Origin: Candidatus Babeliaceae bacterium
Lineage (GTDB): Bacteria; Babelota; Babeliae; Babelales; Babelaceae
Reading direction: 5' to 3'
Assembly: GCA_016933915.1 (NCBI GenBank)
Contig: JAFFZZ010000069.1
Span: 71-64,070, forward strand
DNA: 64,000 nt
Shown here: piece by piece, positions 14,001 through 59,199 of the stretch
Layout: every line of letters starts with the position of its first letter
Position numbering within the stretch: the stretch's first letter is position 1
Translations under genes and position numbers: made by a program
The notes under the pieces: model-generated
Seen by the model: only the letters and a program-made list of their open reading frames with translations
The model's database searches: none
What the model was told of the DNA's origin: nothing

Positions 14001-14343
14001 AGTCGTCATTCCTACTTATTACCGCACAGTTTATTTCTTTGTTTATGCCCTTATCATCTTGTTCATTTAAAGGAGCAGTCCAAATATTGGTGTAATACTG
14101 ATAGGCGAGCAGACTGCCAATTCCAAGCGCAAGGGTGAAAAAGGTAGCACTTGAATATGGGTGTTGATGAAGAAATCCTTTAAATTTTCCTACATTGCTT
14201 ATCTGTGCTGAAATGTTGTTGAGTGGTTGATTTTTAACAAAGGTAACCGAAGTTTGGTTATGCGCAGAAACGGGTGCGGCAACAAAGCTACAGATTATGA
14301 GTAAAGAGATGGTGCGGTAAAAGATTGGTATGGTCTTTTTCAT
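11026..14343 (-). CDS. Large secreted/membrane-anchored protein, orphan family (paralog of 14460-16217)
   Basis: The track ORF starts at a GTG (14361). I prefer the ATG at 14343, which follows the SD AGGGGGA. Signal peptide MKKTIPIFYRTISLLIICSFVAAPVSA, then a second hydrophobic segment after an HPY motif. A ~400-aa core is shared with the neighbouring gene (FYYFCST, EGTFH, HWF-SN-YAYWRASTH, LGKFEH, GETW-K-ERKGC, GNE-IITPEK). Confidence 0.8.
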   Translation of the reverse strand: MKKTIPIFYRTISLLIICSFVAAPVSAHNQTSVTFVKNQPLNNISAQISNVGKFKGFLHQHPYSSATFFTLALGIGSLLAYQYYTNIWTAPLNEQDDKGINKEINCAVISRNDDSNDEDTKENIPNIIPEKKSNKQSIVEQEFSPLGWKNNELYAKATLLSERVKQLIEHKIKIDNQTYASIEKDLLYTIIKITLSNIKTEQFRLQQIGNGNVAPESLQVSNKGLVKGFLNDHTLEKLLRSYITLITDPHASNEKIHLEINIDEKIGKNLKTIRFLQDPETGKLTFSLELRGNRQQKLQYANDLLKDKLVNLSSGRQLHDQKTVGKKKMIIHVDETDDESESTRTIEGRINDILLASFDPKYVTPEKTQNVSEEAKSQILAGWRSTDKKTYQSTYSNAQRLIKQSIEKKLLDKDELESTRQALLREICDIGMFYYFCSTQQRQTEDGKIKECAFREGTFHVTDPLFGKLLTCYLDLIAASGLELGDPKAKHWFASNKYAYWRASTHTKNLPQSFGIDIKPSRTGFTENILGKFEHILGYVNPGTGETWFKFERKGCQVKDTPQHLWHAVESKFWRLGAKVGVTESEDDSSYNNKEHVPVDIKDEFNKLFPGKKDYAQESINAMYQAAVSWLLTNRASLNSENFNKCLAFIKKLEADFDQLYLRVGNEIIITPEKIEHTLLFFDKETNAIYRQLQRVTHLAGLFSKGQYKETIKVIDPNNPLGEYEVIDVEGEEHNDTNQKNQAVKLLDRELDKLYTLCQKHKDISCIKNLITHIETLQKKDSQARWEYARKILGKQPRYFTPISITLLLKEENGVYPTDERAAFHSKIKKIFENFLTNAEKELANIVKKDGIKLLKQITKAPSQDTIKKEVGVSIANQFIEAAGDTLGFIGCFCITQLRYVWPGSTEDKEIKNRLTSLKGTLYNYCLAIKKDAKRFKDDGARINRLKESYAKLENLWQKTFKIINKEMKQNGYPLSIQSSKLSQLQDKFIKDTVNPTLEKAIAHYRTIGKSIISRDQTKKKEVNDLIQTIEKNISTLRESNDKLPRPGLIFFPSEADYKKQFFYENSGMGYGVLFRLFPTELNEETTAKGVDMSVCSLYELYKKV

Positions 14344-14414
14344 GTTTCCCCCTAAAGGCACGTTTTTTATTTTTTAAATTTTTTCAAAAATCACTGACAG
14401 TTCGGGCTCCTTTT

Positions 14415-26468: not shown

Positions 26469-26519
26469 AGAAGAGCGATAAAAAGAGATTTAATATAATT
26501 AGTGGGAGGGCGACACGGT

Positions 26520-27935
26520 ATGAAAAATCAGGAACGAAAGATTGCCAATTCGGGGATATGGAGCGATTCGATTGAATTACGTAAGTTTCTGATTTTGGCG
26601 GCGGTTTTCTTTTTGGTGATTGGTGGGTACACCGTTATCAAAGAGCTCAAGGACTTTGTCTTCATTAATATCGTTGGCTTGCGGGAATTAAATTATGCCA
26701 AAATGCTTTCGATGGTCGTTTTGATTCCTCTCGTTTTTCTCTATTCTCGCTTTGTTGATTTGTTGCGTCGGCACCAGCTTATCTATCTCTACTCTATTAT
26801 TTATGGGTTGGGGGGTATCATTTTTGCGTACTTCTTGGGGCATCCGACGATTGGGCTTGCGAATACGATGCAAAGTTCTTCGCGGCTTTTTGGCTGGTTC
26901 TTTTATTTTTTTATCGAAGGGTATCAGCCTTTTGTGATAAGTCTTATCTGGGCGTTTGTGAACTCTATCACCAGGGCTGAGGATGTTCAAAATGGGTATG
27001 TGGTGGTGACAGCGAGTTCAAAAATTGGTGGTGCCTTAACTGCTGCGCTTGCCTGGTTTTACCTGAATAGTCGTTATGTCTCTTGTGAACCAATGTCTGT
27101 GGGGAGCTATCAGCTTATTATGGTTGCCGCTTCCTGCATGTTGCTTTTGGTGCCTTTTGTCATCTTTTTTCTTATGAAAAAAATTCCGGCATCCCATATG
27201 CATGGGTATGAGGCGGTGTATAAATTTGAAAAGAAGCATGAGAAGGAATTGAAAAAACAGGAGGGTAGTTTGAAAGAGAACTTAGTGAGTATGTTCTCCG
27301 GACTCTATATTCTTTTTCGTTATCCCTACTTACTTGGCGTGTTTGGCATGATCTTCTTTTGGGAGATTGTGAATGTTATTTTTAACTTCATCCGCCTTTC
27401 AGTTGGACAGGCGGCAGCGCATACGCCAACAGAGTTCTGTGCCTTTTTGTATGGGCAGATTTGTCTTTTCCATCTTGTTGGACTGGTGTTCGTCTTGTTG
27501 GGGACAAGGAATTTTATCCGTTGGTTTGGCGAGCGTAAAAGCTTGATTGCTGTTCCGCTGTTGATTGGTGCGGTAATTTGTTATTACCTTACGGTTCGAA
27601 CTGCTACGGCAGCTGCATTGGCATATATTGTGTTGAGGGCTATTAATTATGCCTTTGCTTATCCGCTTCGCGAAAGTCTCTATATCCCAACTACTAAGGC
27701 GGCGAAGTTCAAGACTAAGTCTTGGATTGACGGCTTTGGCGCCAAGCTTTCGAAGTCATTCGGCAGTTGCTACAACATTATAGTAAGCTCGGTTGCTTCA
27801 TCTCTTCTTTTCTCAGTGCATATTGTCTTTTTTGCCGGTGTCATTGGGTTGTGGACGTTGGTTGCCAACTGGCTTGGCAGGCGATTCGAGACAGCTGTTA
27901 AGAATAATGAGGTTATTGGAGTTGAAGAAATATAG
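26520..27935 (+). CDS. ATP/ADP (nucleotide) translocase, NTT/Tlc family, copy 2
   Basis: The ATG at 26520 follows the SD GGGAGGG (the track starts at a GTG, 26502). The protein is collinear with copy 1 (LRKFLILAAVFFLVIGGYTVIKELKD, AKMLSMVVLIPLVFLYSRFVDLLRRHQLIY, RESLYIPTTKAAKFKTKS). Confidence 0.85.
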   Translation: MKNQERKIANSGIWSDSIELRKFLILAAVFFLVIGGYTVIKELKDFVFINIVGLRELNYAKMLSMVVLIPLVFLYSRFVDLLRRHQLIYLYSIIYGLGGIIFAYFLGHPTIGLANTMQSSSRLFGWFFYFFIEGYQPFVISLIWAFVNSITRAEDVQNGYVVVTASSKIGGALTAALAWFYLNSRYVSCEPMSVGSYQLIMVAASCMLLLVPFVIFFLMKKIPASHMHGYEAVYKFEKKHEKELKKQEGSLKENLVSMFSGLYILFRYPYLLGVFGMIFFWEIVNVIFNFIRLSVGQAAAHTPTEFCAFLYGQICLFHLVGLVFVLLGTRNFIRWFGERKSLIAVPLLIGAVICYYLTVRTATAAALAYIVLRAINYAFAYPLRESLYIPTTKAAKFKTKSWIDGFGAKLSKSFGSCYNIIVSSVASSLLFSVHIVFFAGVIGLWTLVANWLGRRFETAVKNNEVIGVEEI

Positions 27936-40420: not shown

Positions 40421-43048
40421 ATGAAAATGAAAAATAAATGGGGGAAGCTGAAAGGCTCCCCACGCAATATCCTGATATTTCTGGCCTTTTTCGCCGCGAG
40501 TCTTTTTGTACTGACTCGACTTGCTGAGCAGGGGCAGGGAACTAAACCTCTCTCATATTCCGAATTTTTGGCTAGCGTTGAGCGCGGAGAGGTTGAATCT
40601 GTCCACGTAGCCGGTTCTCAGGCATTTGGCAAATTGAAAGATGGTAAGCGTTTTGAGGCTACTATTGCTGAAAACCCGAAAAACTGGGATCTCTTGCGGG
40701 AGCACAAGGTGGCGTTTTCGGTAGCTGAACCTGAAGGCTCCTTTGGGTTTGGGTATCTCTTTGTCATTCTTGTTGTTGGCGCTGTTCTCCTTCTTATCTG
40801 GTACGGTATTCGTCAGATTCGTGGTTCCGGTGGTTCGAGTGATATTTTTGATATCAAGAAGAGCAAGGCGCGTATGTTCCTACCGGCCCAGGTCAAGGTA
40901 AAATTCGATGATGTTGCTGGGGCTGATGAGGCGAAGCAAGAGTTGCAGGATATTGTTGATTTTCTTAAAAATCCATTAAAGTACCGAAAGCTTGGTGCCG
41001 AGCTGCCACGAGGGATTCTTCTTGTTGGTGAGCCTGGTAATGGTAAAACGCTTCTCGCCAAAGCTGTTGCTGGAGAGGCAAACTGTCCCTTTTTCAGTGT
41101 AACCGGATCTGATTTTATAGAGGTTTTCGTGGGGGTGGGTGCAGCTCGTATACGTGACCTCTTTAATGAGGCGCGAAAACATGCGCCATGTATTGTCTTT
41201 GTCGATGAGATTGATGCCATAGGCCGACGCCGTGGTAGCGGTCTCGGCGGTGGTCATGATGAGCGTGAGCATGCATTGAATCAGCTTTTGACTGAGATGG
41301 ACGGGTTTGCAAGTGCCGATACCCCGATAATAGTTATTGCAGCAACAAATATGCCAAGTGTTCTCGATCGTGCCCTTCTCCGTTCTGGCCGTTTTGACCG
41401 GCGGGTAACAGTGCCGTTTCCTGATGAACAGGCGCGACGACGTCTCGTTGAGATTTATACTCGTAAAGTTCAGCTTGCACCTGACGTTGATGTGGACAAG
41501 ATTGTTAAAGAGAGTGCTGGTTTTAGCGGCTCTGATCTCACCAACTGTGTGAATCAGGCGGCAATAAATGCTTCGAAGAATGGGCGAGATCAGGTGACGC
41601 AGGAAGACTTTAACGTTGCTTTTAATAAGTTGATTGAATCGCAAAAAGCGAGCCGCAACGAGCATAAAACAACCGGTGAAGAAGAGGGTACGGCGCGTGT
41701 TTATATGCCTTCTCAGATCAAAGTTAGGTTTTCTGATGTTGCTGGTGCCGAAGAGGCTAAGGAAGAGCTTTGCGATTTTATCGATTATTTGAAAGACCCG
41801 GAAAAGTATAAAAAAATTGGTGCAAAATTAACTAAGGGGATTCTCTTAGTTGGTGATCCGGGTAACGGGAAGACGTTGCTTGCCCGTGCGGTTGCGGGGG
41901 AAGCTGGCCGTCCATTCTTTAGTGCAAGTGGTTCCGAGTTTATCGAAAAGTATGTTGGGGTGGGTGCGGCGCGAGTTCGTGATCTTTTTGCGCAGGCACG
42001 TCGTCTTGCACCAAGCATCATTTTTATTGATGAGATAGATGCTATTGGTCGCCGCCGTGATGGCGATGGTGGTCATATGGAGCATAGCCAGACGCTTAAT
42101 CAGCTTCTTACTGAAATGGATGGTTTTGAGACCTCCGGCGCGTCGGTTATTGTGATGGCCGCGACAAACCGTCCTGATGTCCTTGATAAAGCTTTAACGC
42201 GTGCTGGACGATTTGATCGTCAGGTTAACGTGCCGTATCCAGATTTGAATGCCCGTAAAGGGATTCTTGATATTCATGTTCGTGGGGTAAAGCTTGCGGA
42301 AGAGGCAGATCTTGAGAAGATTGCTCGGGGAACTTCTGGTTTCAGTGGTGCTGATCTTGAAAATCTGGTTAATGAAGCTGCGATTAATGCTATCCGCGGG
42401 AATCGTGAAGAGATTGTTATGGCGGATTTTGAAGAGGCGCGAGATAAGATTTTGATGGGTAAACGCTCGAAATCGATGATTCAAACACCTGAAGATTTGC
42501 AGGCGACGGCTTACCATGAGGCTGGCCATGCATTGATGACGCTCTTGCAGCCGGATGTGACGGATCCGTTGCATAAAGTAACCATTGCGCCGCGGGGTAG
42601 AGCGCTCGGTTTTTCTGCAAGTTTGCCTGAGCGTGACCGGTATGCTCATAGCAAGGAAGAGCTTGTTGCTAAGATTATGGTTATGTTAGGTGGCCGTATT
42701 GGAGAAGAAATTGGTATTGGGCGGCAATTTACGGGGGTAACCTCTGATTTTGCGCGAGCGTCTGATATGGCGCGACGTATGGTGCGTGAGTATGGTATGT
42801 CGGAGACGTTGGGGCCCGTCTCGTACGTCAATAAGGGCGATTATTCGGAGGAAACTGCATCTAAAGTTGATGAAGAAGTGCGGCTCTTGCTTATTCGCTG
42901 CTATGAGCAAGCGAAGTCGATGATTATGACCAACAAAGATAAGTTGGAAAAGTTGACTCAGGCGCTTCTCGCCAAAGAGACGCTTGAAGCGGATGAGATA
43001 TATGACCTTTTGGGTATTGCTCCGCGAACGTATCATAAGTTGGCGTAA
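40421..43048 (+). CDS. ftsH: FtsH-family membrane metalloprotease with duplicated AAA+ module (TM-peri-TM-AAA-AAA-M41)
   Basis: Two TM segments are present. AAA-1 spans aa ~155-410 ([24 protein letters not shown]). AAA-2 spans aa ~428-680 ([24 protein letters not shown]). The zinc site HEAGH lies at nt 42515-42529. The whole is one uninterrupted 875-aa ORF. Confidence 0.9.
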
Positions 43049-43817: not shown

Positions 43818-45665
43818 TTAATCAGGGATTTTTTGTCCAATATTTGTCAGGACAGCGTCGATTTCTTTCAGTGTTTTTTCTTTCCCGCCTGAAGAGAGGA
43901 AGGTTGTCTGAGAAGAACGAATAGTATGGTTTTCAATGGGAGGTTTTTGGGCTTTTTTTTCAGCTTGTTTTTTATATTCAGTGAAGAATTTTTTGGCCAA
44001 AGCCGTTGCTACCCGTGATGAGCCGGTGTTTTCTATAAGAATGACAAGGACGATTGGTTGGTTATTTTTATAGCTGCCGTATCCAGCGAACCAACCGTGC
44101 GGTAGGAATTTTTTGCCCTGTGTCTCTCTGTTTAAAATTGTCGTCTGTGCTGTTCCTGTTTTTGCATATAACTCAAAGTCTGTAAGGGAGCTCAATGCAT
44201 AACCCGTACCCCTTTTTATCATCTGGCTCATTGATTTCATGAGAAACTTTCGTGTTCGGGGTGATAGGGTAACTGGTTGTTTATCAATAGATTCTTCGAG
44301 CAGGATCCGTGGACGAACAAGTGATCCGGTACAGATTGCTCCAGTCATTCGTGCAATCTGAAGCGGGGTGACGAGGGTGTAACTTTGGCCAATTGCTACC
44401 TGCATTGTTTCACCTTTCCACCATGATTGACGAAATTTTTTTCGTTTCCATGCTGCTGTTGGAATCAAGCCTCTGCCCTCGGCAAAGAGGATCCCTGTTG
44501 GGGATCCGAGTCCTAGTTGCTGTGCGTAGCGAGCGAGAATGTCTACCGAGAGTCGTTTTCCGATTTCATAACAAGGAATATTACATGAGACAGCGAGGGC
44601 GGTGTATGGATCGAGAGTGCCATGCCCTGCGCGGCGATTACAATGGTAGATACGCCCCCCGTACTCTATACTTCCGGTGCAATTCCAGCATGTCCCTTGC
44701 TCAAAGACGACATTCTCTTCAAGCCCCGCTGCCATGGTTACCAGCTTGAAAAGCGATGCGGGCGGGTAACTACTGAGAGCTCGGTTGATGAAAGGCCGCT
44801 TTCTTTTACACTGTTCCCACGTATCAATACTAATAGGTCCAATGAACATATTTGGATCAAATGTTGGGCGCGATATCATTGCGAGAATGTCACCACAGAG
44901 TGGATCCATAACGATGATGGCACCATCTTGCTCCTCATCCATAAGTCTCTCTACGATGAGTTGAAGATCGAAATCGATGGTTGTTTGTAATGGTCGTCCC
45001 GCTTGTGCTGCTTCTACTTCACGAGAAATCAAAAGTTTGCCGCATGAGTTGACCATATTTTCGCGGGCACCTGGTTGTCCTCGTAATTGTTCTTCGAATA
45101 GCTTTTCGAGACCGAGTGTTCCTGCTCGATGGTGTTCAGTATCTCTGAAATAACCAAGGATGTGGCTTGCAACTGTCCCGTGGGGATAATAACGAGTTGC
45201 TGTTGTTACGACTGCAAGATTGGCGCAGGCCGGGAATTGCTCCATGATGATACCAAGGCGTTCAAATGAGAGATCTTCGATAAGTGTGTACTCTTTACAA
45301 CGTCCTTCAGCTTCAAGGAGATCGTTGTCGCCAAGAAGGGAAATGTTGAGTACTCGTTCAATCGAACGGAGAAGTTCAAGTTGATCATTCGATAATTTTT
45401 TTTTACCGGTACCGCGCCAAACAAGACGCGCTACCGGACGGTTGGTGGCAAGAAGACGACCATGACGATCTAGAATAGCACCACGTGGTGAGGTGATTTT
45501 TTCATATCGAAGAAAGTTGCGGCGGCTATGCTTACGAAATGTATCGGCGTGATAAATCTGAAAATATACGAGTGCAAGTCCTATTGAGGTGCAGAGAATG
45601 ATTATGAAGAGTCCGATAAGGCGGAGCCGATTTTTGACCAGATAGGTTGGTGGCAATCTTTTCAT
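43818..45665 (-). CDS. mrdA: Penicillin-binding protein 2-type peptidoglycan D,D-transpeptidase (PBP2/FtsI family)
   Basis: N-terminal TM anchor, PRGAILDRHGRLLATNRP, and the transpeptidase motifs SLFK (SxxK), SCN (SxN) and KTGTA. I cannot separate PBP2 from FtsI by eye. Confidence 0.75.
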   Translation of the reverse strand: MKRLPPTYLVKNRLRLIGLFIIILCTSIGLALVYFQIYHADTFRKHSRRNFLRYEKITSPRGAILDRHGRLLATNRPVARLVWRGTGKKKLSNDQLELLRSIERVLNISLLGDNDLLEAEGRCKEYTLIEDLSFERLGIIMEQFPACANLAVVTTATRYYPHGTVASHILGYFRDTEHHRAGTLGLEKLFEEQLRGQPGARENMVNSCGKLLISREVEAAQAGRPLQTTIDFDLQLIVERLMDEEQDGAIIVMDPLCGDILAMISRPTFDPNMFIGPISIDTWEQCKRKRPFINRALSSYPPASLFKLVTMAAGLEENVVFEQGTCWNCTGSIEYGGRIYHCNRRAGHGTLDPYTALAVSCNIPCYEIGKRLSVDILARYAQQLGLGSPTGILFAEGRGLIPTAAWKRKKFRQSWWKGETMQVAIGQSYTLVTPLQIARMTGAICTGSLVRPRILLEESIDKQPVTLSPRTRKFLMKSMSQMIKRGTGYALSSLTDFELYAKTGTAQTTILNRETQGKKFLPHGWFAGYGSYKNNQPIVLVILIENTGSSRVATALAKKFFTEYKKQAEKKAQKPPIENHTIRSSQTTFLSSGGKEKTLKEIDAVLTNIGQKIPD

Positions 45666-46498
45666 CGAAGATAGCGCTCCGTGCTAATGCGGGTTGTATG
45701 ACCGAGTAATTTTTGCACTGTTGCGAGATCTGCCCCTTGTTCAAGAAGATGAGTTGCGAATGAGTGGCGGAGTATCTGGGGGGTGAGCCTTTGCTTTGGA
45801 AGAAGTTTGCCGAATGCGTTACAAATACGTTGAATAGATCGCGCCGTTAGTGGTTCACCGCGTTGGTTTAAGAATAGAAATTCTTCATTGCTTTCAGGAT
45901 GAGGTCGTTCTTTGATGAGATAATGAGTAAGCTGTTCCGCTGCTTTGGGTCCAAAGAATACTGTTCGTGGTGTACGCCTACCAGAGCGAATAAGTAGTGT
46001 CTTTTGTGCGATATCAAGATTTATCAGCTGCAAGTTGGCAAGTTCTGCGCTTTTTATACCGGTGGCATACAAAAGTTCAAGAATAGATTTATCGCGATGT
46101 GGGACATTGGTTGGGAGTTGATCATCTGGAATTTGATCGAGAATAAGTACAAGGGAGTGAATTGAAATAATTTCAGGTTTTTTAGCGGGAACCAGGGGCC
46201 GTGCGAGTGCTGTTTTTTGGTCAGGTTGCACGAAGAGTAGGAATGAGTTGAGACATGAAGTTTTGCGTGCGATAGTGCTAGCTTTCATTTTGCTGCGTAC
46301 GAGCTCTTTTTTGTAAAGTGTAAATGTTTTAACAAATGGAAGTTTTGTTTTTTTTTCTGTTTCTTTGTTTTGCCAAAATCTAAAGAAAAGTGTCAGGTCG
46401 GCTTCATATGCGCGACACGTGTGTGTCGATCTCCCTTGATTTTCTTTGAGAAAGTGAATAAATGGAGAAATGGATTGCAGCAACGTTTCCTGTTCCAT
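45662..46498 (-). CDS. Tyrosine recombinase, XerC/XerD family
   Basis: N-terminal SAM-like segment FLKENQGRSTHTCRAYEADLTLFF. Catalytic C-terminus RHSFATHLLEQGADLATVQKLLGH...TERYLR. Its stop overlaps the PBP2 start by 4 nt. Confidence 0.8.
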   Translation of the reverse strand: MEQETLLQSISPFIHFLKENQGRSTHTCRAYEADLTLFFRFWQNKETEKKTKLPFVKTFTLYKKELVRSKMKASTIARKTSCLNSFLLFVQPDQKTALARPLVPAKKPEIISIHSLVLILDQIPDDQLPTNVPHRDKSILELLYATGIKSAELANLQLINLDIAQKTLLIRSGRRTPRTVFFGPKAAEQLTHYLIKERPHPESNEEFLFLNQRGEPLTARSIQRICNAFGKLLPKQRLTPQILRHSFATHLLEQGADLATVQKLLGHTTRISTERYLR

Positions 46499-48754: not shown

Positions 48755-51571
48755 ATGGATGCCAAAAAGTCATCTGCGGCGAAGATGGCCGATTTTAAGG
48801 AGTCTCTCAATCTTCCCCGTACCGATTTCCCGCTCCGCGCAGATGCTTGCATTAATGACCCCATTATGCTTGAGCGCTGGGAGAAGGAAAAGCTCTATGA
48901 GCGAGCGATGAGGTGCCATGAAGGCGCCTCGCGCTTTGTCCTTCATGATGGCCCCCCTTATGCGAATGGACACATCCATTTGGGGCATGCCTATAATAAA
49001 ATTCTCAAGGATATTCTTGCCAAAGCGCGGCGTATGAGTGGGATGCAGGTTCCTCTGGTTCCCGGTTGGGATTGTCATGGTCTTCCTATTGAGCATCGAG
49101 TAAAACAGGAAAATCCAACGCTTACGGGGACTGCGCTTAAAGCGGCGTGTCGAGAGTCTGCATATACCTGGATTAATATCCAGCGCTCTGAATTCAAGCG
49201 TTTGGGTATTTTAATGGATTGGGAGCATCCATATATTACGATGGCTCCGCGGTATGAGGCAGCTATTTTGCGTTCATTTGGCAAGCTTGTACGAGGTGGT
49301 TTTGTCGAGCGAAAAAACAAGACTGTTCCCTGGTGCCCACATTGCCAAACGGCTCTTGCGGCTGCAGAGATTGAATATCAGGATCGAGAAGATCCGTCTC
49401 TTTTTATCAAGTTCAAAGTTACTTCAGAAACAGCGCAAAAACTTGGACTAACTGATAAGCCCGTATCATTTCTTATCTGGACGACAACGCCGTGGACGAT
49501 CCCGTTAAACCGTGCTGTTCTCCTGCGTCCGGGGGCTGCTTATAAGGTTATTGAGTATAACGGGGAGTACCTGGTTTTGGGGGCCGAGCGGGTTGCTTCA
49601 GTGATTACTGGGCGGGGGCTTGGCTCTGATTTAACCGTAAAAAAAGTGATTCCTTCAGAGATGCTTGCAGGAGAATTGCTCTGGCATCCCATTGATTTCG
49701 ATCGTCAGGTGCCGGTTATTCTTGATCAGTCAGTTGGTCTTGATGAAGGTACTGCGTGTGTGCATTGTGCGCCAGGGTGTGGCCCCGTGGATTATGAGGT
49801 CGGAATAAAAAACAATCTCGAAATATATTCACCGGTAACAGCAGATGGTCGGTATTCGGTTGGTATAGTTCCTGCAGAACTTCAGGGAAAAACAATAGCT
49901 GAGGGGCAAAAATGGGTAACGGAATATGTAAAAAAAACGGCAATGTTGTTTGCTGAAACTCGTATTATACATAGTTATCCGCACTGTTGGCGTTGCCGTA
50001 AAGGCCTTATTTTCCGTGCGACACCGCAATGGTTTTGCAATCTTGCGCATGACCACGTTAAAGAGAGGGCGCTTGCCGCTATTGAGAAAATAGATTTTAT
50101 GCCGTCGCAGGCAAAAAATTTCCTACGAGCTACTATCGAAAGTCGTCTTGAATGGTGCCTCTCGCGCCAGCGACTGTGGGGAGTTCCTATTCCGGCGTTG
50201 GTTTCAGGTGATCAAACAACTGCTCTTATCACAGAAAAATTAATTTCTTTTGTTGCTGATCATGTTGAGAAAGAAGGTGTTGAGTTTTGGGATCGTATTT
50301 CGCTTGACGAGCTTGTTAAAGCTGATGTTGTTCCCGCTGATGCGGTTGCTGCTGGTTACAGAAAAGAGACCGATATTATTGATGTCTGGTTTGATTCTGG
50401 CGTGAGTCATACAGCGGTGCTGCTTCTTAATCCAGAGCTCCATTTTCCTGCTGATCTCTATCTTGAGGGTGTCGATCAACATCGGGGTTGGTTCCAGAGT
50501 TCACTTCTGACAAGTATCATTTTGCATGATGAAGCGCCGATGAAGGCGATCATGACGCATGGGTTTACCGTTGATGATCAGGGACGTAAGATGTCCAAAT
50601 CGCTGGGGAACGTGGTTGCTCCGGAAGAACTCATTGAGAAGGTGGGAACTGATGGATTACGGCTTTGGGTTGCAAGCATAGGCAATGAGGGTGATGCGGT
50701 AGTTTCAAAAGTTCTTATAGAACATGTGTCACTTGTGTATCGAAAAATTCGTAACACGTGTCGCTTCTTGTTGCAGAATCTCTATGACTTTTCCATTGAA
50801 CGCGATGCGGTATCATTTGAGCATTGTTCGGCGATTGATAGGTATGCTCTCTATCAGTTGATGCGCCTGCAAGAGCGTGTTTTGGAAGTGTATAAACAGG
50901 GGAATGTGACGGCCATTTTTCATCTATTGAATGATTTTTGTACGGTCGATATGAGCGCCTTTTATGGGGATGTAGCAAAAGATTGTCTCTATTGTAACAA
51001 AGCCGATAGTCAGGAGCGGCGCGCAGTGCAGACGGTTTTCTGGCGTATCCTTGATACGTTGGCGAAACTTATGGCACCTATCTTATCCTTTACGGCAGAG
51101 CAGCTTTCTGATTATTACCAGACCGATAAGAAAGAGTCGATTCATCTTCAATGTTTTGCAGATCATGCAGCATTACGCCGTCTTTTTGCAGCAGTTGATA
51201 CCGTTGCCTATGAAAAACAATGGGCGTTGGTGAAAGAAATTCGCTCTGTGGTTTTGAAGCTGATTGAAGAGCAGCGGGCCGCGGGGCTTGTCAAGCATTC
51301 ACTTGATGCTGCAGTTGATCTCTTTATTGATGATATGTCCCGTCTTTCAATAATTGAAGAGAAAGAACTCGAACGCTTTTTCGCTACTGTTTTTATTGTT
51401 TCACGAGTACGGCTTATCCCTTCACCAGAAGGGCTTGTCGTTACACCGGTTGCTGGTGTATTGGCTAAGGTAACGGCAGCGTCGGGAACGAGATGTCCTC
51501 GTTGCTGGCAGTGGCACGAGCAGGATTGCGTTCTCTGTAAACGTTGCGCCTTGGTAGTTGATGCGGACTAG
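48755..51571 (+). CDS. ileS: Isoleucine--tRNA ligase
   Basis: PPYANGHIHLGHAYNKILKD (HIGH motif), KMSKSLGNVV, and a C-terminal zinc motif CPRCWQWH...CKRC. Confidence 0.95.
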   Translation: MDAKKSSAAKMADFKESLNLPRTDFPLRADACINDPIMLERWEKEKLYERAMRCHEGASRFVLHDGPPYANGHIHLGHAYNKILKDILAKARRMSGMQVPLVPGWDCHGLPIEHRVKQENPTLTGTALKAACRESAYTWINIQRSEFKRLGILMDWEHPYITMAPRYEAAILRSFGKLVRGGFVERKNKTVPWCPHCQTALAAAEIEYQDREDPSLFIKFKVTSETAQKLGLTDKPVSFLIWTTTPWTIPLNRAVLLRPGAAYKVIEYNGEYLVLGAERVASVITGRGLGSDLTVKKVIPSEMLAGELLWHPIDFDRQVPVILDQSVGLDEGTACVHCAPGCGPVDYEVGIKNNLEIYSPVTADGRYSVGIVPAELQGKTIAEGQKWVTEYVKKTAMLFAETRIIHSYPHCWRCRKGLIFRATPQWFCNLAHDHVKERALAAIEKIDFMPSQAKNFLRATIESRLEWCLSRQRLWGVPIPALVSGDQTTALITEKLISFVADHVEKEGVEFWDRISLDELVKADVVPADAVAAGYRKETDIIDVWFDSGVSHTAVLLLNPELHFPADLYLEGVDQHRGWFQSSLLTSIILHDEAPMKAIMTHGFTVDDQGRKMSKSLGNVVAPEELIEKVGTDGLRLWVASIGNEGDAVVSKVLIEHVSLVYRKIRNTCRFLLQNLYDFSIERDAVSFEHCSAIDRYALYQLMRLQERVLEVYKQGNVTAIFHLLNDFCTVDMSAFYGDVAKDCLYCNKADSQERRAVQTVFWRILDTLAKLMAPILSFTAEQLSDYYQTDKKESIHLQCFADHAALRRLFAAVDTVAYEKQWALVKEIRSVVLKLIEEQRAAGLVKHSLDAAVDLFIDDMSRLSIIEEKELERFFATVFIVSRVRLIPSPEGLVVTPVAGVLAKVTAASGTRCPRCWQWHEQDCVLCKRCALVVDAD

Positions 51572-53523
51572 CTTTTCATTGGCTGTGCAATCTGAGCGAG
51601 GCTGTTTGCGAGTTTGTGCATAATGAGTTGTTCGTAACGTTCCTTAGGGGAAAGTTCGGCTTTTACCAGTTCCTTTATTCTGCTGATTGAGGTATTTAAA
51701 ATTGATTGTTCCTCTGGTGGGAGTAGATCTGCTTTAATATCTTTAAGCAGTTGTGCTAATTTCGCTTTCTTAAGGGTATTCAGAGCATTTCCTGGGTCTG
51801 TTGGTAATTCATTTTCCTTTTGATAGACATAGTGTTTGGAGTAATCCATCTCTTTTTCTTTTCCGGTCGTTGTATCTATTTCAGCGGGATAATGTGATTC
51901 TTTGAGATTTAAAAACGTAAATTGGCCTTTAAAATCTTTCGTTACTAATGTGTCGATGATAAATACTTTATCTTCGCCTGTCATGATCATCTGAAATGAT
52001 TCGGGGACAATCTCACTGAATTTCCAGTCCTTTGCATTGATCTCTTTGATGTGATGAACAGCGGTTCGTGGAATGAGCGAGATAAAGTGCGGCGGAATTT
52101 TTGCTCCTGTTGGTCGTGGAATGATGAGTTTAAAAGGTATCTCTGCTGCTTCAAGTGTAATGACAGCTGGCAGCATTTTTTGGCCCGTCTTTATGCCCTT
52201 TTTGATTTTTTCTTGTGACTGTGCAAAAAAGTCCCTGACATTAAGATCACGTCCATGGCTCTTTGCTAACACTTTTCCGATTTTAACCATACAACCTTCA
52301 GGAGATTCGAGCAATGACATCCATTCACGGCCAGGAAATCTAATGGAGGGAATGTGTGAAAAGCGTTCTAGGAGGTAGATTTGATCATCAGGATTAGCAG
52401 CTTCAGCCCAAACATCATAATCGGTATAGAGGGGCGCGATTGTGCCTATAAGGTTGAAGAATGAGTATTTTTTTGGGTTATTGAAAAATTCTTTGAAATT
52501 GGGTGAAAAAGTGGCGGTCGTGAAGGCAGATGTTGGCGTGCTTGTTGAAGTGAGCGACATTATTGGGTAGTTATATGTTTCACCGAGAAGATCTTTGCGA
52601 TCACTTCTGGTTGCTTCCAGCACGTTTATGTCTGCCCCGTAACAGGTGTTGAAAATGAAAAGATAGGTAAAGATTTTATTGTTGAAAAAATTAAGAAGTT
52701 TCTTAAAATCTGAGATGTAGAATCCGGCGATTATACCTTTAAAACCAGCTTTTCCGATGGCCTCACGTGCTTTTTGGTCGATTCCGGTTGCTATGTATTG
52801 GGCATATTTATAGTCAAAAAGTTGCTGAGCATCTTTCGGTGTACGGCGATAGTCGCCATGATCATTGAGGTAAATAAGCCAGACCGGCTCTTTAAATTTT
52901 TTTTCTATAATCTCTTCGGTATAATCTTTATGCGTCATGAAAATGTTTTGTAGACATTCAAAAAATTCATTGGCAAAAGGTGTTAGGAGCGTTCGTGGCT
53001 CACCTCTTTTTATTTCAATGAAAAATTGAGACGTCATTGAAATAGGCGCTACTTCTCTTTTAATGTCTTTGATTACTGCCGGGGAGGGATGGTCTATTTT
53101 AAGGCCGAGAATGATCTCACGTTTGGTGAAAGCACCCACCTTATCGGTTGATGTTGCTTTGATATCGGTGAGATATGTTTTGGGAATGAGTAGGAAAAAA
53201 TGTTCCGAAGCTTTAAATGCAAGCCAGTTGTCTAGAAATGTTTCATTACCTTTTTCAATCAAAAATTTTCTTGTGTCAAAGAGAATGTTTGCACTCACCA
53301 GAAGCGGTGCCGCTTGTTGCTCGATAAAGAAAGAGACTGAATTTTCGACAAAGCACTCTGTGTTTTCCTCTTGCCCCATGCTTGGAAATATGCCGATACC
53401 ACGAATTGGAGCATCGGGAAATGGGTGCAATGGTTTTATGGAAGAAGGAATTGTTTTTGTTGGTAAAGAGATGGCGTATGTAATGAGTATGAGTCCCGTA
53501 AAAAGGAGGGAGACTTTTTTCAT
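51568..53523 (-). CDS. Secreted orphan protein with candidate clan-CD-like His-Gly/Cys dyad (paralog of 53608-55461)
   Basis: The ATG at 53523 follows the SD GGAAAG (the track ORF runs to 53574). Signal peptide MKKVSLLFTGLILITYAISLP. WLIYLNDHG has its His codon at 52860-52858, and YLFIFNTCYG has its Cys codon at 52644-52642. It is collinear over its full length with its neighbour. Confidence 0.75.
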   Translation of the reverse strand: MKKVSLLFTGLILITYAISLPTKTIPSSIKPLHPFPDAPIRGIGIFPSMGQEENTECFVENSVSFFIEQQAAPLLVSANILFDTRKFLIEKGNETFLDNWLAFKASEHFFLLIPKTYLTDIKATSTDKVGAFTKREIILGLKIDHPSPAVIKDIKREVAPISMTSQFFIEIKRGEPRTLLTPFANEFFECLQNIFMTHKDYTEEIIEKKFKEPVWLIYLNDHGDYRRTPKDAQQLFDYKYAQYIATGIDQKAREAIGKAGFKGIIAGFYISDFKKLLNFFNNKIFTYLFIFNTCYGADINVLEATRSDRKDLLGETYNYPIMSLTSTSTPTSAFTTATFSPNFKEFFNNPKKYSFFNLIGTIAPLYTDYDVWAEAANPDDQIYLLERFSHIPSIRFPGREWMSLLESPEGCMVKIGKVLAKSHGRDLNVRDFFAQSQEKIKKGIKTGQKMLPAVITLEAAEIPFKLIIPRPTGAKIPPHFISLIPRTAVHHIKEINAKDWKFSEIVPESFQMIMTGEDKVFIIDTLVTKDFKGQFTFLNLKESHYPAEIDTTTGKEKEMDYSKHYVYQKENELPTDPGNALNTLKKAKLAQLLKDIKADLLPPEEQSILNTSISRIKELVKAELSPKERYEQLIMHKLANSLAQIAQPMKS

Positions 53524-53607
53524 AATAAACTTTCCGCGCTCAGACCAATTCACTTTGATGAATAAGATATCCAAAGAAAATGTTTGATGGCAATAGATTT
53601 GGTTCTG

Positions 53608-55461
53608 TTAGTGGCGAGTTATATATGCTCCGATTTTGTTGGTAGCGCTCCTAAAGAGAGTGAAAAATGTTTTGGTTGCCGACGTACATATTTCGGCTAG
53701 AGGGTCCCTGAAAAAGTTGCGACGTCGATGCCTTCTGCTTTGCTGAATCTCTTTGAGCAGTGTTTGAGCTTTTTCGATATATTTTTTGTACGCCCTTTTT
53801 TTCTTGGTGATTATTCGTGTGGGATCTTCGATGAAAAATGCACCTGCCTTTTCATCGTTATAGGCGATGAAGAGATGTGTAGCATCACCATTCTCGGTGT
53901 GTGAAGGCCTGAGATTAAAGAAGATGCAGCGCCCTTCGAAATCTTTGACGTGTAATCTTTCAACAACGAATATTTTGTCTTCGCCAGTATTTGGCATTGT
54001 GAATGCTTTTTTAATTTCTTTCAGGCTCCAGTCAGGTGCTATTATTGCAGAGAACGAATGAACTGCTGATCCAGGTGAGAGAGAGATGAATTGTGGTAAT
54101 TCATCTCGTTTCCCCGTGCGTTCAATAGTAAGAGGACAGGTGATTTTTTGTGTCTGAAGAGTAATGACAGCGGGAAGTGTTTCATCGATCCGTGAAATAC
54201 TGAGAGGATTTCCCCGCTGTTTACATACGGTCTTTTTGCTGATGGAGAAAATAGTGGCATCTGGCGATTCGATTAGTTCGATCCAGTTGCGATTAGGAAA
54301 TTTAATGCAAGGAATTTGTGGTGAGCTGTCCTGGCGGGATAGATCAAAATCTTCCCACTCTTCTTGGTCATCATAAAACGAGGTTATCGTTTTAATAAGA
54401 TTAAGATAGTTACGACAATCAAAGCGTGTTTTTGGACTTATATTTGATGGTTTTTTAGCGGATGCAGCTTTAAAAAATCTCTCATAGTCTGGTGCGCCAA
54501 GTTGCCAGACGGGTGTGCTCGTTGCGGTAAAGGCGATGATGGGAAAACGGTAATTTTCAAGAGTTTTTCCATTGTTCGACCAATCTTGGAGAAAATCGTG
54601 CAGGTTTTCTCCGCCGCTAAAGCAGGATGTGAAGACTGTCGCAGCAGTATTTATCTGCTTGTTGCAGAAGGCTAGAAGCTCTTTTACTTCAGATGGACAC
54701 ATTCCACTGAGTGAGCCAGAGACCTCATCGATATCTGTTTCTTCTGGATTGTCGTGCCAGATGATGCATCTGTTTTCGTGAATAATGGTAGCAAGTTCTG
54801 AATGTGGGGTTCCGTGTGCATCGGCAAGAATGAGCCATTGAGGCTTTTCGAAGTTAGACGGAATATCACCAATTTTTTGCGCTGTTGCATAATCGTTATT
54901 GGTAACAAAAAGGTTTGGAAGTTGCGCGATAAGCTCGCCTATAGCGGGGGTATGTTTTTCCCATGTGTTAAGATTTTCGTTGTACTTAAGAAGTGGTGTT
55001 GCAGGAATCCTTGTTCTGAATGTTTTTTTATCGCTTCGTTCTGTCTCGTCGAGAGTAGTATAATGGTCAATTTTTAGCCCAAGGATTAGTTCACGTTTAC
55101 TAAGGCCTGAAACGAGTTGTTCTGTTTTATCAGATACTATGAGATGTGATGGGACAACTAACACAAACATATCGGTTATTTTGTATATCTTCCAGTCTTC
55201 AAGGTCATCTGTGAGAGAGGGGGTGATGCTGAGCGCATTGTACAATAAATTGTTGCTGATGACTGCTGGCGCTGATTCCGATCTAATAAATGCTGGGATT
55301 GCCTGGTAAGAAAAAGGAAGCGAATCATCATGTACCTTTTCTGTGTAATCGACAAAGAACGCTATGCCTCGACTAGCAACAGGCTGAATCTTTTTACGTG
55401 TTGCTTGTGCTGGCACGCAAAAGAAATAGAGAATGGTAAGGGTAATAAGATACCGCTGCAT
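53608..55461 (-). CDS. Secreted orphan protein with candidate clan-CD-like His-Gly/Cys dyad (paralog of 51568-53523)
   Basis: Signal peptide MQRYLITLTILYFFCVPAQA. WLILADAHG has its His codon at 54816-54814, and ATVFTSCFSG has its Cys codon at 54624-54622. Blocks shared with the paralog: KRE-ILGLKIDH, TSTP, LPAVITL, FISL-P-(T/S)AVH, GEDK-F. Confidence 0.75.
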   Translation of the reverse strand: MQRYLITLTILYFFCVPAQATRKKIQPVASRGIAFFVDYTEKVHDDSLPFSYQAIPAFIRSESAPAVISNNLLYNALSITPSLTDDLEDWKIYKITDMFVLVVPSHLIVSDKTEQLVSGLSKRELILGLKIDHYTTLDETERSDKKTFRTRIPATPLLKYNENLNTWEKHTPAIGELIAQLPNLFVTNNDYATAQKIGDIPSNFEKPQWLILADAHGTPHSELATIIHENRCIIWHDNPEETDIDEVSGSLSGMCPSEVKELLAFCNKQINTAATVFTSCFSGGENLHDFLQDWSNNGKTLENYRFPIIAFTATSTPVWQLGAPDYERFFKAASAKKPSNISPKTRFDCRNYLNLIKTITSFYDDQEEWEDFDLSRQDSSPQIPCIKFPNRNWIELIESPDATIFSISKKTVCKQRGNPLSISRIDETLPAVITLQTQKITCPLTIERTGKRDELPQFISLSPGSAVHSFSAIIAPDWSLKEIKKAFTMPNTGEDKIFVVERLHVKDFEGRCIFFNLRPSHTENGDATHLFIAYNDEKAGAFFIEDPTRIITKKKRAYKKYIEKAQTLLKEIQQSRRHRRRNFFRDPLAEICTSATKTFFTLFRSATNKIGAYITRH

Positions 55462-55516: not shown

Positions 55517-57805
55517 TTATGTGGCAGGTGTCTCCGTTGGCGTAGTTTTTGCTTCTGTTTTTAATTCAGATCCGGATAATTTTTCTTTTTTCTCCCCCCC
55601 TTTTCCAGGGTGATAGGTGAAGAAGCTTTTGAGGCTGTCAACATTTCGCATAAGCGTTGAAATATTTGTTTGAGCCTCTCGTATTTTGGGATCTGTTAGT
55701 TTGGAGCTGCCGAGAGCTCCTGCTAGTGCCTCTAAATTATCTCGCTTTTCAAATTCATCGGTTAGTTTGTCGTATGCTTCGAGTTCTTTGTCGGTTGGTG
55801 GCTCACGAAGAATATTGATTATTTTGATAAGATTCTGAGCTGTATCAGACGCTTTTTTCAGAGCTAACCCTTCGGTGAGAGTTGAGATCTCTTTTTCGGA
55901 TATTTTTTCTCGAGGTTTAACGGCTGCTTTTTTGGGTTCGACAGATAATCCCGGTTTTTCTTCAAGTTCTTCTTCGGTAAGTTCGTGAGGGAGTTCTTTA
56001 AACCCTTCGGCACGAAGCTTCTTTGCTTCTTCAGTGTCAGCGTCGGGTTTTTTTTCGGTCTTCGCCTCTTCTTTATCTGGAGTTGCCTCCTCAACTTTTT
56101 CTTTTTCTGTTAGCGTCGTTGGTTCTGCGGATCGGATGCGGGTAATCAATTTTTGTGTCTCGGGGTTTTCAAGGCTTTTTTTTGCAGACTTTATATTTTT
56201 GGTGAGATCTTGGAGCATTTGATGGACTGAGCGTGTATCAACTTTTTGTGCGCGTTCTGCACGTTTTGTTTTTGATTCAACGTGAACAGGCTTTTCTGCC
56301 TTTGATTTTTTATCGGGTTCTGTGGGCTTTTGACCAGGTGCTGTGCTTTTTAAATGATTGTCTGTGTGTGGTGATTCTAGTGAAGGTTGTTCTGCAGATG
56401 GAAGCCATGAGGGATATCCGCCATATCCGTTAAAAAAGTTAGAATTGGGTACTGTTTCTGGCACATGATAATATGGGTCGAGACGTCCGGTTGAAAGCTT
56501 TATAGGTCTCGTACTTAAAAGTTTTTCTCGTTCTTGGAGGCGAGCGTTTTCCATTTCTTCCATCGCTTCCTTTTGCTTTAAGGCTTCTGGTTCGTACTGA
56601 CGAATAATGTTTTCCACCGTGGTGAGAAGCGCAAAGATATATTTTCCGAGTTCAGTGACCAAATTTTCTGTTCGATCGTAGGTAATACGATATTGTTCAA
56701 TACGTTCCTGATCTTTCGCTTGAATGATACGATCAGCCTGTTCACGCATTTTCGGATCTCTACCGATTTCATTCCACGCTTCTACGATCTCTGTTCGTGC
56801 AATGTCCGCTTTGAGCATTTCTCGTGTAATGTCTTCTTCCGAAGCATCTTCTGCTTCCAGTTTTTTTGCTACCTTTTCAGGGTCATGCTTTTTGAGAAGT
56901 GCCTCGTACGCAATTTTTATCTCTTCGTCTGATGCGCGAGGTGATACACCGAGAGTTTCGTATGGTGTCTTAAGTTCTTCTTCGGGTGCTTCGACTACCG
57001 GTGCGGTGACCCGTGGTTCTCGTTTGGTGAGTGCTCGAGAGAGTTCACTCAATGTATCTCGTATTTTGGCATAGGAGTTTTGTGCAAGGCGCGTGTGAAA
57101 CTCACTCTTATTTATAGCGGTAAGTAAAAATCGAAGTGTCTGAATTTCAAGGAGTGCTGGTCGGGTTGCGATAAAGATTGTGTCATCAACTGTTTTGAGA
57201 ATGAGAGAGTCAAGATGATAAATAATAGTATCAAGAAGTTCTTTGACGAGTTTAATTGTTTCTGGCGCTGGTTTTTCAGGAATAGAAGCGGCGCCACCGT
57301 CGTCATTTTCGGTTGTAATGGGCGATGGGATCATCTTTTTGGGACGCGGTAAAGACGGCGGCTTTTGGAAAGAAGGTGCCGCTGTTGGTTGCGGCACTGG
57401 GGCTGTAGGTTGATAAAGAGATGGTGGAGCTGCTTGTGCAATTTCTTCTACTTTGCTTTCAACACGCTTTTGTTCTTCCGGGGTAAGCGATCCTATCATG
57501 TTTTCACCGATTTTTGCCGCTTGTTCAAGAAGTTCTGGCGGTGCGTTGCGGATGAATTCTTCCATCTGACGCATCATTTCAGGGTTTTTTTTCAATTCTT
57601 CTAATTCATTGACAAGTTGGTCAACATCGAAAGCAGGCATGTTACTCGGATCAAATGCTGGCCCAAGTCCTCCAGGGGTTGCAGGCATAGGTCCCATAGG
57701 CATGGGGTTGCCGGATATAGGGAATCCCCCCATACAATTCATAATACAGGTGTTTCCCAATATAAGAACGAGAGAAAGCTGAGATAATCTCTTCATCATC
57801 TTCAT
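55517..57805 (-). CDS. Secreted Pro-rich/charged protein with divergent J-domain-like segment (HPD replaced by HDP)
   Basis: The ATG at 57805 follows AAAGG (the track ORF runs to 57919). Signal peptide MKMMKRLSQLSLVLILGNTCIMNC. Nt 56735-56971 encode TPYETLGVSPRASDEEIKIAYEALLKKHDPEK...EIVEAWNEIGRDPKMREQ. Confidence 0.7.
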   Translation of the reverse strand: MKMMKRLSQLSLVLILGNTCIMNCMGGFPISGNPMPMGPMPATPGGLGPAFDPSNMPAFDVDQLVNELEELKKNPEMMRQMEEFIRNAPPELLEQAAKIGENMIGSLTPEEQKRVESKVEEIAQAAPPSLYQPTAPVPQPTAAPSFQKPPSLPRPKKMIPSPITTENDDGGAASIPEKPAPETIKLVKELLDTIIYHLDSLILKTVDDTIFIATRPALLEIQTLRFLLTAINKSEFHTRLAQNSYAKIRDTLSELSRALTKREPRVTAPVVEAPEEELKTPYETLGVSPRASDEEIKIAYEALLKKHDPEKVAKKLEAEDASEEDITREMLKADIARTEIVEAWNEIGRDPKMREQADRIIQAKDQERIEQYRITYDRTENLVTELGKYIFALLTTVENIIRQYEPEALKQKEAMEEMENARLQEREKLLSTRPIKLSTGRLDPYYHVPETVPNSNFFNGYGGYPSWLPSAEQPSLESPHTDNHLKSTAPGQKPTEPDKKSKAEKPVHVESKTKRAERAQKVDTRSVHQMLQDLTKNIKSAKKSLENPETQKLITRIRSAEPTTLTEKEKVEEATPDKEEAKTEKKPDADTEEAKKLRAEGFKELPHELTEEELEEKPGLSVEPKKAAVKPREKISEKEISTLTEGLALKKASDTAQNLIKIINILREPPTDKELEAYDKLTDEFEKRDNLEALAGALGSSKLTDPKIREAQTNISTLMRNVDSLKSFFTYHPGKGGEKKEKLSGSELKTEAKTTPTETPAT

Positions 57806-57906
57806 TTTAAGACCTTTTTGCATGCTGCCAAACTGCTTGCTTTTGACGATACTGTTGTTTTCGTTACGATGGAAGCATATCATGCCATCACGTGTTAAGG
57901 AGACCA

Positions 57907-59199
57907 ATGACAATAACATCCTCTAAACTATCGCTTAAAAAATACGTTTTGTCAATACCAGGGGCGCGTTTTGTTCTCCTTGGGATCTCTGGGATTGCTT
58001 ATGGGGCGTCGTTCACCTGGTGTTGGTTTTTATTTTGGCTTATGGTGCCAGCATTCGTGGCTTTAGGATGGCTTTTTGTTGATAAAAGAATGTCTTTTGG
58101 TGAGGCGTTCTGGTGGGGAGCGTGTGCATTTGCCCCCCGGGTTTTTGGGGTATTTTCTGCATTGGTCCGCTCGCTAGGAATGTCATGGTGGCTCACTTTA
58201 GGTGCCAGCACTCTTTTTTCTGCATATTTGGTGGTTCAGGTTGCTTTGGTTATCACTGCCGGTGCTTGGTTGGCACAGCACGGGAAACGTTTTTTTCGTC
58301 TGATAACTTTTTTCGGCGTCTTGTTTTTAATGCACTGGTGGTTGGTCTCTGGGCTCTTTTGGGTCTTTGGGGCATTTGAAGGAGACGCGACATCTCACCC
58401 TTTGGTACCGTGGTTTTGTGGTTGTGCTGGTCGATTGGTTGGAACGCGTGGAGTTCCCCAGCATATTTTGCGTTTTGCGGTGGTGCGTCTTCCGTTTAAG
58501 CCGTTGGCCACTGTTTGTGAAGTTGAACATCTCGACTTTTTATCTCGGAGTATTGCGCAGCTTGCTGTAGAAAAACCTGAGGTTTCAGTCATTCTGTTAC
58601 CTGAATCATCTCTTCCATACTGTTTGAATACGCATTCTTCCTCTATGGCAGCATTGTCGCTTTTGAGCGAAAGGAAGGCGCTTGTTTTTAGTGGGCACCG
58701 GCAAGAGGGTGACTCTGTTTCGAGTTGTTGTTATTTTTTTAATGGCGGGCAACTTTCAAGTTGGTGTGAAAAATACCATCTTATGTTTTTTGTGGAGCGT
58801 GCTCCAGCACTTTTTGGTTTGCCGCTACCTTGTTCTATAGGTCATCTGATAGGGATTGATGATTTCTTTGTTCCGGGTAAACGGGAGCGGGTTCCCTTTG
58901 TTGTTTCTGGGCTATCCGGCGAACCAGTGTCATTGCTTTATCCGTTAATCTGTTCAGAGCTTTTCATGACTAATCAGATAGCATCTGTTCCTTCGACAAA
59001 TTGTGCCGCTGTTGCGCTGGTGAACGATGCTTGGTTCGCCGGGTCCGCGCAGCCGGATCTTATGTTTGGACTTGCCCTTTTAAAGGCCTGGTGGTATCAA
59101 AAAGATCTTTTTTATGTGGGGTATCGCTATGCGACGTACATTTGTGGGAGGGGGTTAAGGCGCTCTGCCCATCTTGCCGTATATTCCGATTTACGTTGA
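57907..59199 (+). CDS. lnt: Apolipoprotein N-acyltransferase
   Basis: The ATG at 57907 follows the SD AAGGAG (the track starts at a GTG, 57892). The N-terminus is polytopic. The C-terminal CN-hydrolase domain carries VILLPESS (Glu), EKYHLMFFVERAP (Lys) and YPLICSELF (Cys). Confidence 0.65.
   Translation: MTITSSKLSLKKYVLSIPGARFVLLGISGIAYGASFTWCWFLFWLMVPAFVALGWLFVDKRMSFGEAFWWGACAFAPRVFGVFSALVRSLGMSWWLTLGASTLFSAYLVVQVALVITAGAWLAQHGKRFFRLITFFGVLFLMHWWLVSGLFWVFGAFEGDATSHPLVPWFCGCAGRLVGTRGVPQHILRFAVVRLPFKPLATVCEVEHLDFLSRSIAQLAVEKPEVSVILLPESSLPYCLNTHSSSMAALSLLSERKALVFSGHRQEGDSVSSCCYFFNGGQLSSWCEKYHLMFFVERAPALFGLPLPCSIGHLIGIDDFFVPGKRERVPFVVSGLSGEPVSLLYPLICSELFMTNQIASVPSTNCAAVALVNDAWFAGSAQPDLMFGLALLKAWWYQKDLFYVGYRYATYICGRGLRRSAHLAVYSDLR

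Follow-up and report, generated by a model that had tools for sequence, protein, structure and literature searches.

We analysed a window of 64,000 nucleotides from Candidatus Babeliaceae bacterium (GenBank assembly GCA_016933915.1, contig JAFFZZ010000069.1, positions 71 to 64,070 of the forward strand) and found that two adjacent genes on its minus strand, here called gene A and gene B, encode divergent members of a large, unannotated and so far unnamed protein family. We consider it fairly likely that both products are Sec-exported members of a Babeliales/Dependentiae family with a clan CD cysteine peptidase core, acting as effectors on proteins of a protist host. Judged by its sequences, the family looks like a new one within clan CD and not a member of a known family, and A and B are probably host-directed proteases belonging to it.

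Genes A and B are paralogs. BLASTP aligns their products over 562 columns at 29% identity (E 2e-57) and places His on His and Cys on Cys, which bears out the paralogy proposed in an earlier account of this DNA made from the letters and open reading frames (ORFs) only (hereafter the sequence-only reading). The shared blocks quoted there, KRE(I/L)ILGLKIDH, TSTP, LPAVITL, FISL.P..AVH and GEDK(V/I)F, are all found in A and B at collinear positions. It had also called the proteins collinear over their full length; this holds for residues 12-544 of A with 8-521 of B and fails for the last ~100 residues, which form helical tails and cannot be aligned. The ATG at 53523, with a Shine-Dalgarno-like sequence, GGAAAG, just ahead of it, is likely to be the start of gene A. 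Since the ORF track opens the gene at a TTG 17 codons upstream (51568-53574, 668 amino acids), the residues earlier numbered H239 and C311 become H222 and C294 when counted from the ATG, while H216 and C280 of gene B were exact. The parts of the two genes are:

51568-53523, minus strand: gene A, 651 amino acids from the ATG at 53523, beginning MKKVSLL; a putative clan-CD-like cysteine peptidase, predicted to be secreted
53458..53523, minus strand: signal-peptide-like N-terminus of gene A, MKKVSLLFTGLILITYAISLPT (heuristic call)
52534..53412, minus strand: caspase/legumain-like alpha/beta domain of gene A, predicted at about amino acids 38-330
52855..52860, minus strand: His222-Gly223 of gene A, with the putative catalytic His, right after the predicted strand 214-220 (WLIYLND)
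52642..52644, minus strand: Cys294 of gene A, the putative nucleophile, right after the predicted strand 285-292 (YLFIFNT)
51904..52356, minus strand: conserved beta-rich C-terminal domain of gene A, about amino acids 390-540
51571..51795, minus strand: variable helical C-terminal tail of gene A, amino acids 577-651, with no alignment to gene B
53608-55461, minus strand: gene B (family member P0003), 617 amino acids, a paralog with an architecture like that of gene A
55402..55461, minus strand: signal-peptide-like N-terminus of gene B, MQRYLITLTILYFFCVPAQA, with an AXA-type site (heuristic call)
54811..54816, minus strand: His216-Gly217 of gene B (His codon 54814-54816)
54622..54624, minus strand: Cys280 of gene B, at the putative nucleophile position

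In gene A the His codon occupies 52858-52860. The alpha/beta domain holds an inserted subdomain with an invariant Gly140 in the motif E-x-x-L-G-L-K-I-D-H, and the beta-rich C-terminal domain, which may be regulatory or substrate-binding, carries the family-conserved residues P397, W401, H490 and K519.

An exhaustive hidden Markov model (HMM) search of 50%-identity cluster representatives, with A, B and P0002 as queries, identified 1075 family representatives at E<=1e-3, including 153 at E<=1e-30; gene A and gene B score 1.6e-280 and 2.4e-297 against the family profile. Gene A has its closest homologue in P0002, whose contig comes from a soil metagenome and also encodes a TLC translocase; upstream of P0002, where the window has a J-like gene, that contig carries an ankyrin gene. 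A word-indexed search for homologues gave a single real relative (P0002) with one protein as query and little more with a profile. A and B have no match in Pfam or NCBIfam, and sequence searches of PDB with A, B and a 60-member profile returned nothing relevant. Wherever a source names a family member, the name is 'hypothetical protein', and typical members match curated NCBIfam models only through ankyrin repeats in their C-terminal extensions. Our literature search found nothing specific on this family or on clan CD proteases in Dependentiae.

Scanning GTDB species genomes with a 10-sequence alignment, we detected 19 family loci, most of them in bins labelled Candidatus Babeliales or Dependentiae and four in bins labelled Pseudomonadota or Gammaproteobacteria; a 3-sequence alignment had found no loci, and one of 60 sequences proved too diverse to derive a pattern from. 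Several bins gave two family loci each. The window carries exactly two copies, A and B, and tandem pairs occur elsewhere too (loci L004, L012, L016 and L020). Fusions were found in 3 of 60 members, with ankyrin repeats in two and leucine-rich repeats (LRRs) in one. The C-terminal ankyrin repeats of members such as P0151 and P0021 weakly match AnkH and AnkY, models of Legionella Dot/Icm effectors.

The putative catalytic residues are close to invariant in the family. In an alignment of 124 members that are 19-46% identical to the reference member P0066, the His is present in all 124, the Gly next to it in 123 and the Cys in 123, and because of this conservation at such identities the pattern is more than a chance arrangement. 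A lack of conservation of the two residues among homologues, which the sequence-only reading had named as grounds for giving up its proposal, was thus not observed. The sole Cys exception, P0141, has Trp instead (KSWYFVG) and is probably a pseudo-enzyme offshoot. The family consensus reads PxW[AS]IYxxGHG, followed by the Cys within LLxYxSCYAAGxN, and shows a hydrophobic strand ahead of each putative catalytic residue, as in clan CD. The distance from His to Cys is usually 36 residues, and insertions extend it to 72 in gene A and 64 in gene B. The family shows the clan CD order of a His-Gly after one hydrophobic strand and a Cys after the next; in gene A, H222 and C294 each stand two residues past the end of a predicted strand (214-220 and 285-292, respectively).

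Predicted structures place these residues in an alpha/beta core. The AlphaFold2 model of gene A, built on a 60-member alignment, has a predicted local distance difference test score (pLDDT) of 79.5 and a predicted template modelling score (pTM) of 0.81. Its elements run as strand 40-46, a helix, strand 74-77, the inserted subdomain, strand 214-220 and His222, and then helices, strand 285-292, Cys294, a helix, strand 321-323, the beta-rich domain and the helical tail. The AlphaFold model of P0066, a compact and typical member, was built on 124 sequences, is confident (pLDDT 88.4, pTM 0.85) and shows the same strand-His, helix, strand-Cys, helix, strand arrangement around the dyad. The closeness of His and Cys in three dimensions is suggested by this strand-helix-strand connection. 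Sortase, L,D-transpeptidase and chymotrypsin-like folds, which also carry a His and a later Cys, were considered and rejected; they are beta-barrels or beta-sandwiches, in contrast to the strand-helix-strand predicted here.

Searching PDB with the P0066 model in Foldseek, we found that 38 of the 50 top matches are clan CD peptidases, spanning C11, C13, C14, C80 and CHAT. Legumain ranks second with 4nok (probability 0.90, E 0.026) and appears again with 5lua (probability 0.80); the others include PIGK (7w72_K), plant asparaginyl endopeptidases and ligases (5h0i, 6idv and 6l4w), caspases 3, 6, 7, 8 and 11, MALT1, a Candida metacaspase, a SAVED-CHAT protein (8tl0_C, rank 36) and the cysteine protease domain of TcdA (3ho6_B, rank 40). 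In the viral structure library BFVD the best match is annotated 'Clostripain [Tupanvirus deep ocean]' (probability 0.97, 314 columns, template modelling (TM) score 0.39). The model of gene A also returned MALT1, at ranks 27 and 45. On the P0066 matches, every one of which has an E-value of at least 0.012, we count the caspase-hemoglobinase topology as present. The case for a clan CD fold is thus supported by the consistency of the match list and not by any one match; the caspase-like alpha/beta fold expected by the sequence-only reading agrees with it, with no match below E 1e-3, and the clan CD reading of A and B is supported at the level of both fold and motif.

Profile comparison gives modest but specific support, short of family membership. 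We used the sequences of human PIGK and human legumain, verified against the PDB chains 7w72_K and 4aw9_A. With hhalign, the family profile aligns to PIGK with the family His and Cys on H164 and C206 (pairwise P 7e-4), pairing IYxxGHG with IYMTGHG and SCYAAG with DTCQGAS; Cys206 of PIGK is marked by PDB entry 8imy, a C206S mutant. When only the catalytic domain was used, the score was 28.7 (P 2.2e-3), higher than in any of 100 shuffles, whose scores averaged 14.0 and reached 21.6 at most. That the best profile similarity is to PIGK, the GPI (glycosylphosphatidylinositol) transamidase and not a hydrolase, and that C13 enzymes, several of them ligases (5h0i, 6idv and 6l4w), dominate the fold matches, would also suit proteins with the clan CD fold and dyad that work as transpeptidases or ligases in the manner of GPI8 or the plant peptide asparaginyl ligases. 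We regard this as quite unlikely, as the PIGK similarity is limited to ~45 residues around the dyad and most clan CD enzymes are hydrolases; nor, to our knowledge, would the other subunits of a GPI transamidase be expected in a bacterium.

Among the named clan CD systems, C13 (legumain and asparaginyl endopeptidases, GPI8/PIGK; PF01650) is the source of the best fold matches (4nok, 5lua and 7w72_K). It shares with the family the succession of a hydrophobic strand, His-Gly, a short strand, a helix, a second hydrophobic strand and a Cys followed by small residues. The His-Cys spacing is 36 in the family and 41-42 in legumain and PIGK, and the Cys motif is S-C-Y-A-A-G as opposed to E-A-C-E-S-G in legumain and D-T-C-Q-G-A-S in PIGK. 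Unlike C13 enzymes, family members have, between strands 2 and 3, an inserted subdomain of ~100 residues that contains an invariant Gly of its own, and are bacterial, predicted to be secreted and present in several copies; their C-terminal domain is beta-rich, whereas legumain has a helical prodomain. With C14 (caspases, metacaspases and MALT1) the family has in common the caspase-hemoglobinase fold and the His-Gly ... Cys dyad, but C14 matches rank lower and cover shorter stretches, the Q-A-C-x-G and D-x-C-H-S-G motifs of C14 are absent from the family and nothing points to processing into large and small subunits. CHAT (as in SAVED-CHAT) and C80 (TcdA/MARTX) share the fold class and the order of the dyad, with weak matches; their domain architectures differ, and the family gives no sign of a cyclic-oligonucleotide sensor or of inositol hexakisphosphate-binding features. 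The C80 domains form part of toxins that are delivered to host cells. The clostripain-type C11 peptidases, which provide the best viral-library match (Tupanvirus), are by sequence a family apart, and secreted C11 peptidases have been reported in a cultured member of the Dependentiae (PMC6561590).

Several results weigh against a clan CD peptidase identity or an active role for A and B. In the hhalign comparison with legumain, a single local alignment paired the family's His with H148 and its Cys with C189, with a score (18.1) inside the shuffle range. A C13 profile built from legumain homologues stayed shallow, the matches listed being vertebrate legumains that share 83% identity or more with human legumain, and it improved hhalign little. 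Among the first 25 of the 51 Pfam families matched by 60 members at E<=1 there was no clan CD model, PF01650, PF00656, PF03415 and PF12770 all being absent there, and no clan CD chain, legumain and PIGK included, was matched in PDB by the family profile at E<=10. The gene A model had no significant match in PDB, its clan CD matches being faint (PIGK, 7wld_K, second with E 0.41), and no fold match is significant by itself: the best E-value is 0.012, TM scores do not exceed 0.44 and root-mean-square deviations are large. Between His and Cys the window proteins have 28-36 residues more than usual, and they keep 40 (A) and 38 (B) of 50 conserved positions, compared with a family median of 47. The Gly before the His is replaced in both, giving Asp-His in A and Ala-His in B, and gene A lacks the conserved acidic residues that follow strand 1; in typical members these residues might, speculatively, confer Arg/Lys specificity. 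Because of this divergence, A and B may differ from typical members in activity or specificity. A search of sequencing runs found the window sequence only in the source sediment metagenome and in no RNA run.

Given the weak statistics, the His/Cys pattern might instead sit on a common Rossmann-like or vWA-like alpha/beta domain without homology to clan CD, in another kind of thiol enzyme or a binding protein. Signs of this are a top PDB match to a Toxoplasma conoid-ring protein, recurrent hits to Sec23/24 trunk domains, E-values that all exceed 0.01 and the lack of a Pfam or PDB sequence match. A fold of that kind would not account for 38 clan CD peptidases from six or more families among the 50 top matches, for clostripain as the best BFVD match, for invariant residues exactly at the clan CD positions (His before Cys, spacing 36), or for an hhalign alignment in which both fall on the catalytic pair of PIGK, and we hold it to be very unlikely. 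Still less probable, to the point of being hardly credible, is that A and B are catalytically dead and have retained the fold just to bind other molecules. Both count among the family's most divergent members, and P0141, with Trp for Cys, shows that pseudo-enzymes arise in the family; yet A and B retain the His, the Gly, the Cys and most of the other conserved core positions.

Gene A starts MKKVSLLFTGLILITYAIS and gene B starts MQRYLITLTILYFFCVPAQA followed by T, and both N-termini resemble Sec signal peptides under a simple test for a charged n-region and a hydrophobic core, in line with what the sequence-only reading had stated. The same test was positive for 45 of 60 family members. A lipoprotein reading of A and B was dropped, as neither has a lipobox. 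A type II secretion system is reported to be conserved in TM6/Dependentiae (PMC4776705), and many putative effectors bearing signal peptides, proteases included, have been described in a cultured member of the Dependentiae (PMC6561590); both reports suit the proposed export and host-directed role.

The Sec-type signal is the only export feature evident in A and B, and nothing in them indicates passage across the outer membrane. They could therefore be active clan CD peptidases of the bacterium's own periplasm or surface that process or mature bacterial proteins or recycle envelope proteins, and PorU is a clan CD enzyme with a role in envelope sorting. We think this unlikely: several divergent copies per reduced genome bin, tandem duplications, fusions to ankyrin repeats and LRRs, and paralogs that have diverged quickly (29% identity) are not expected of a housekeeping protease. 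Host-directed action is suggested instead by the several copies per bin, the tandem duplications and the occasional ankyrin/LRR fusions.

We infer the chemistry and the host role of A and B, including that they are catalytically active, leave the periplasm and have targets in the host, from the conservation of the dyad, the presence of signal peptides, the expansion of paralogs, the ankyrin/LRR fusions and the parasitic lifestyle. The invariant His of the His-Gly, at the end of one central strand, would activate the thiol of the invariant Cys that ends the next strand (S-C-Y-A-A-G), as in legumain, GPI8 and caspases. The thiol would then attack a peptide bond of the substrate held in the S1 pocket, forming an acyl-enzyme that is subsequently hydrolysed. 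The beta-rich C-terminal domain and the variable helical tail probably serve to regulate the enzyme or to direct it to its substrates. Export would proceed via Sec and then probably through the type II secretion system, with the proteins of the protist host as the site of action.

The Dependentiae/Babelota are obligate protist parasites of wide occurrence, and next to nothing is known of the ways in which they manipulate and digest their hosts. With at least 1075 clusters at 50% identity, predicted secretion, multiple copies and an invariant dyad on a caspase/legumain-like fold, the family is a candidate for a major effector class of the phylum. More speculatively, and with rather more doubt than belief, it may constitute a phylum-wide, fast-diversifying Babelota/Dependentiae effector arsenal. 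Its members would form a new clan CD family that reaches protist hosts by way of Sec and type II secretion, and its different paralogs would cleave, or ligate as GPI8 does, distinct host proteins. Targets of such an arsenal could include the host's cell-death or trafficking machinery, and its members would be bacterial mimics of eukaryotic legumain and caspase activities. If the peptidase reading is confirmed, clan CD gains a new family, many metagenomic 'hypothetical proteins' gain a starting point for protease annotation, and protease and ligase biochemistry gains new specificities.

Upstream of gene B lies one further gene with a signal-peptide-like N-terminus, considered here as context:

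55517-57805, minus strand: J-like gene, 762 amino acids

On the minus strand the J-like gene, gene B and gene A follow one another consecutively, and gene A is convergent with ileS. We found no terminator-like site on that strand between the three genes, and a weak promoter-like site ahead of gene A. The sequence-only reading had described a three-gene exported cluster with gaps of 55 nucleotides (B to the J-like gene) and ~85 nucleotides (A to B). The adjacency, the shared strand and the first gap stand, and the second gap is 84 nucleotides from the ATG; a functional link is unsupported beyond this adjacency, as phmmer found no J-like homologue among the six-frame ORFs of 20 other loci with family genes. 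The J-like domain scores above its Pfam threshold (E 7.7e-8). Its signature tripeptide is His-Asp-Pro (56879-56887, minus strand, within KKHDPEK) as opposed to the canonical His-Pro-Asp, and helix III comes after a long insert. A secreted, non-canonical J-like protein of this kind might target a host Hsp70, or might be inactive. Divergent beside it is a 435-amino-acid ORF (57892-59199, plus strand) with several long hydrophobic stretches and no Pfam match at E<=1e-3.

The window is a fragment of a bacterial chromosome that encodes IleRS, MetRS, a Mur ligase, a penicillin-binding protein transpeptidase, FtsH, Lon, topoisomerase I, DnaB, RuvC, the beta and tau/delta' subunits of DNA polymerase III, a RecF/SMC-like ATPase (SMC_N match) and the ribosomal proteins S2 and L9. 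A phage or viral origin was rejected on account of these housekeeping genes, and since the window is bacterial and not viral, the 'during infection' of the sequence-only reading must refer to a bacterial parasite of protists. Two tandem genes for TLC ATP/ADP translocases (24948-26420 and 26502-27935, plus strand; PF03219, E 7e-16 and 6e-14) were also detected. Such translocases are a hallmark of energy-parasitic intracellular bacteria, and because of these genes we regard the organism as an energy parasite. A tandem duplication of the translocase has been described for TM6 (PMC4776705).

Four large ORFs of the window have no Pfam match and fall outside the family of A and B: 2954-7093 (plus strand, 1379 amino acids), 7161-8888 (plus strand, 575 amino acids), 11026-14361 (minus strand, 1111 amino acids) and 14460-16217 (minus strand, 585 amino acids). 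These may be further lineage-specific or effector genes. The FtsH homologue (40421-43048, plus strand, 875 amino acids) has two AAA stretches, instead of the usual one, before its M41 peptidase domain. The housekeeping genes also have among them a phage-integrase-family tyrosine recombinase (45662-46498, minus strand) whose domain content is XerC/D-like.

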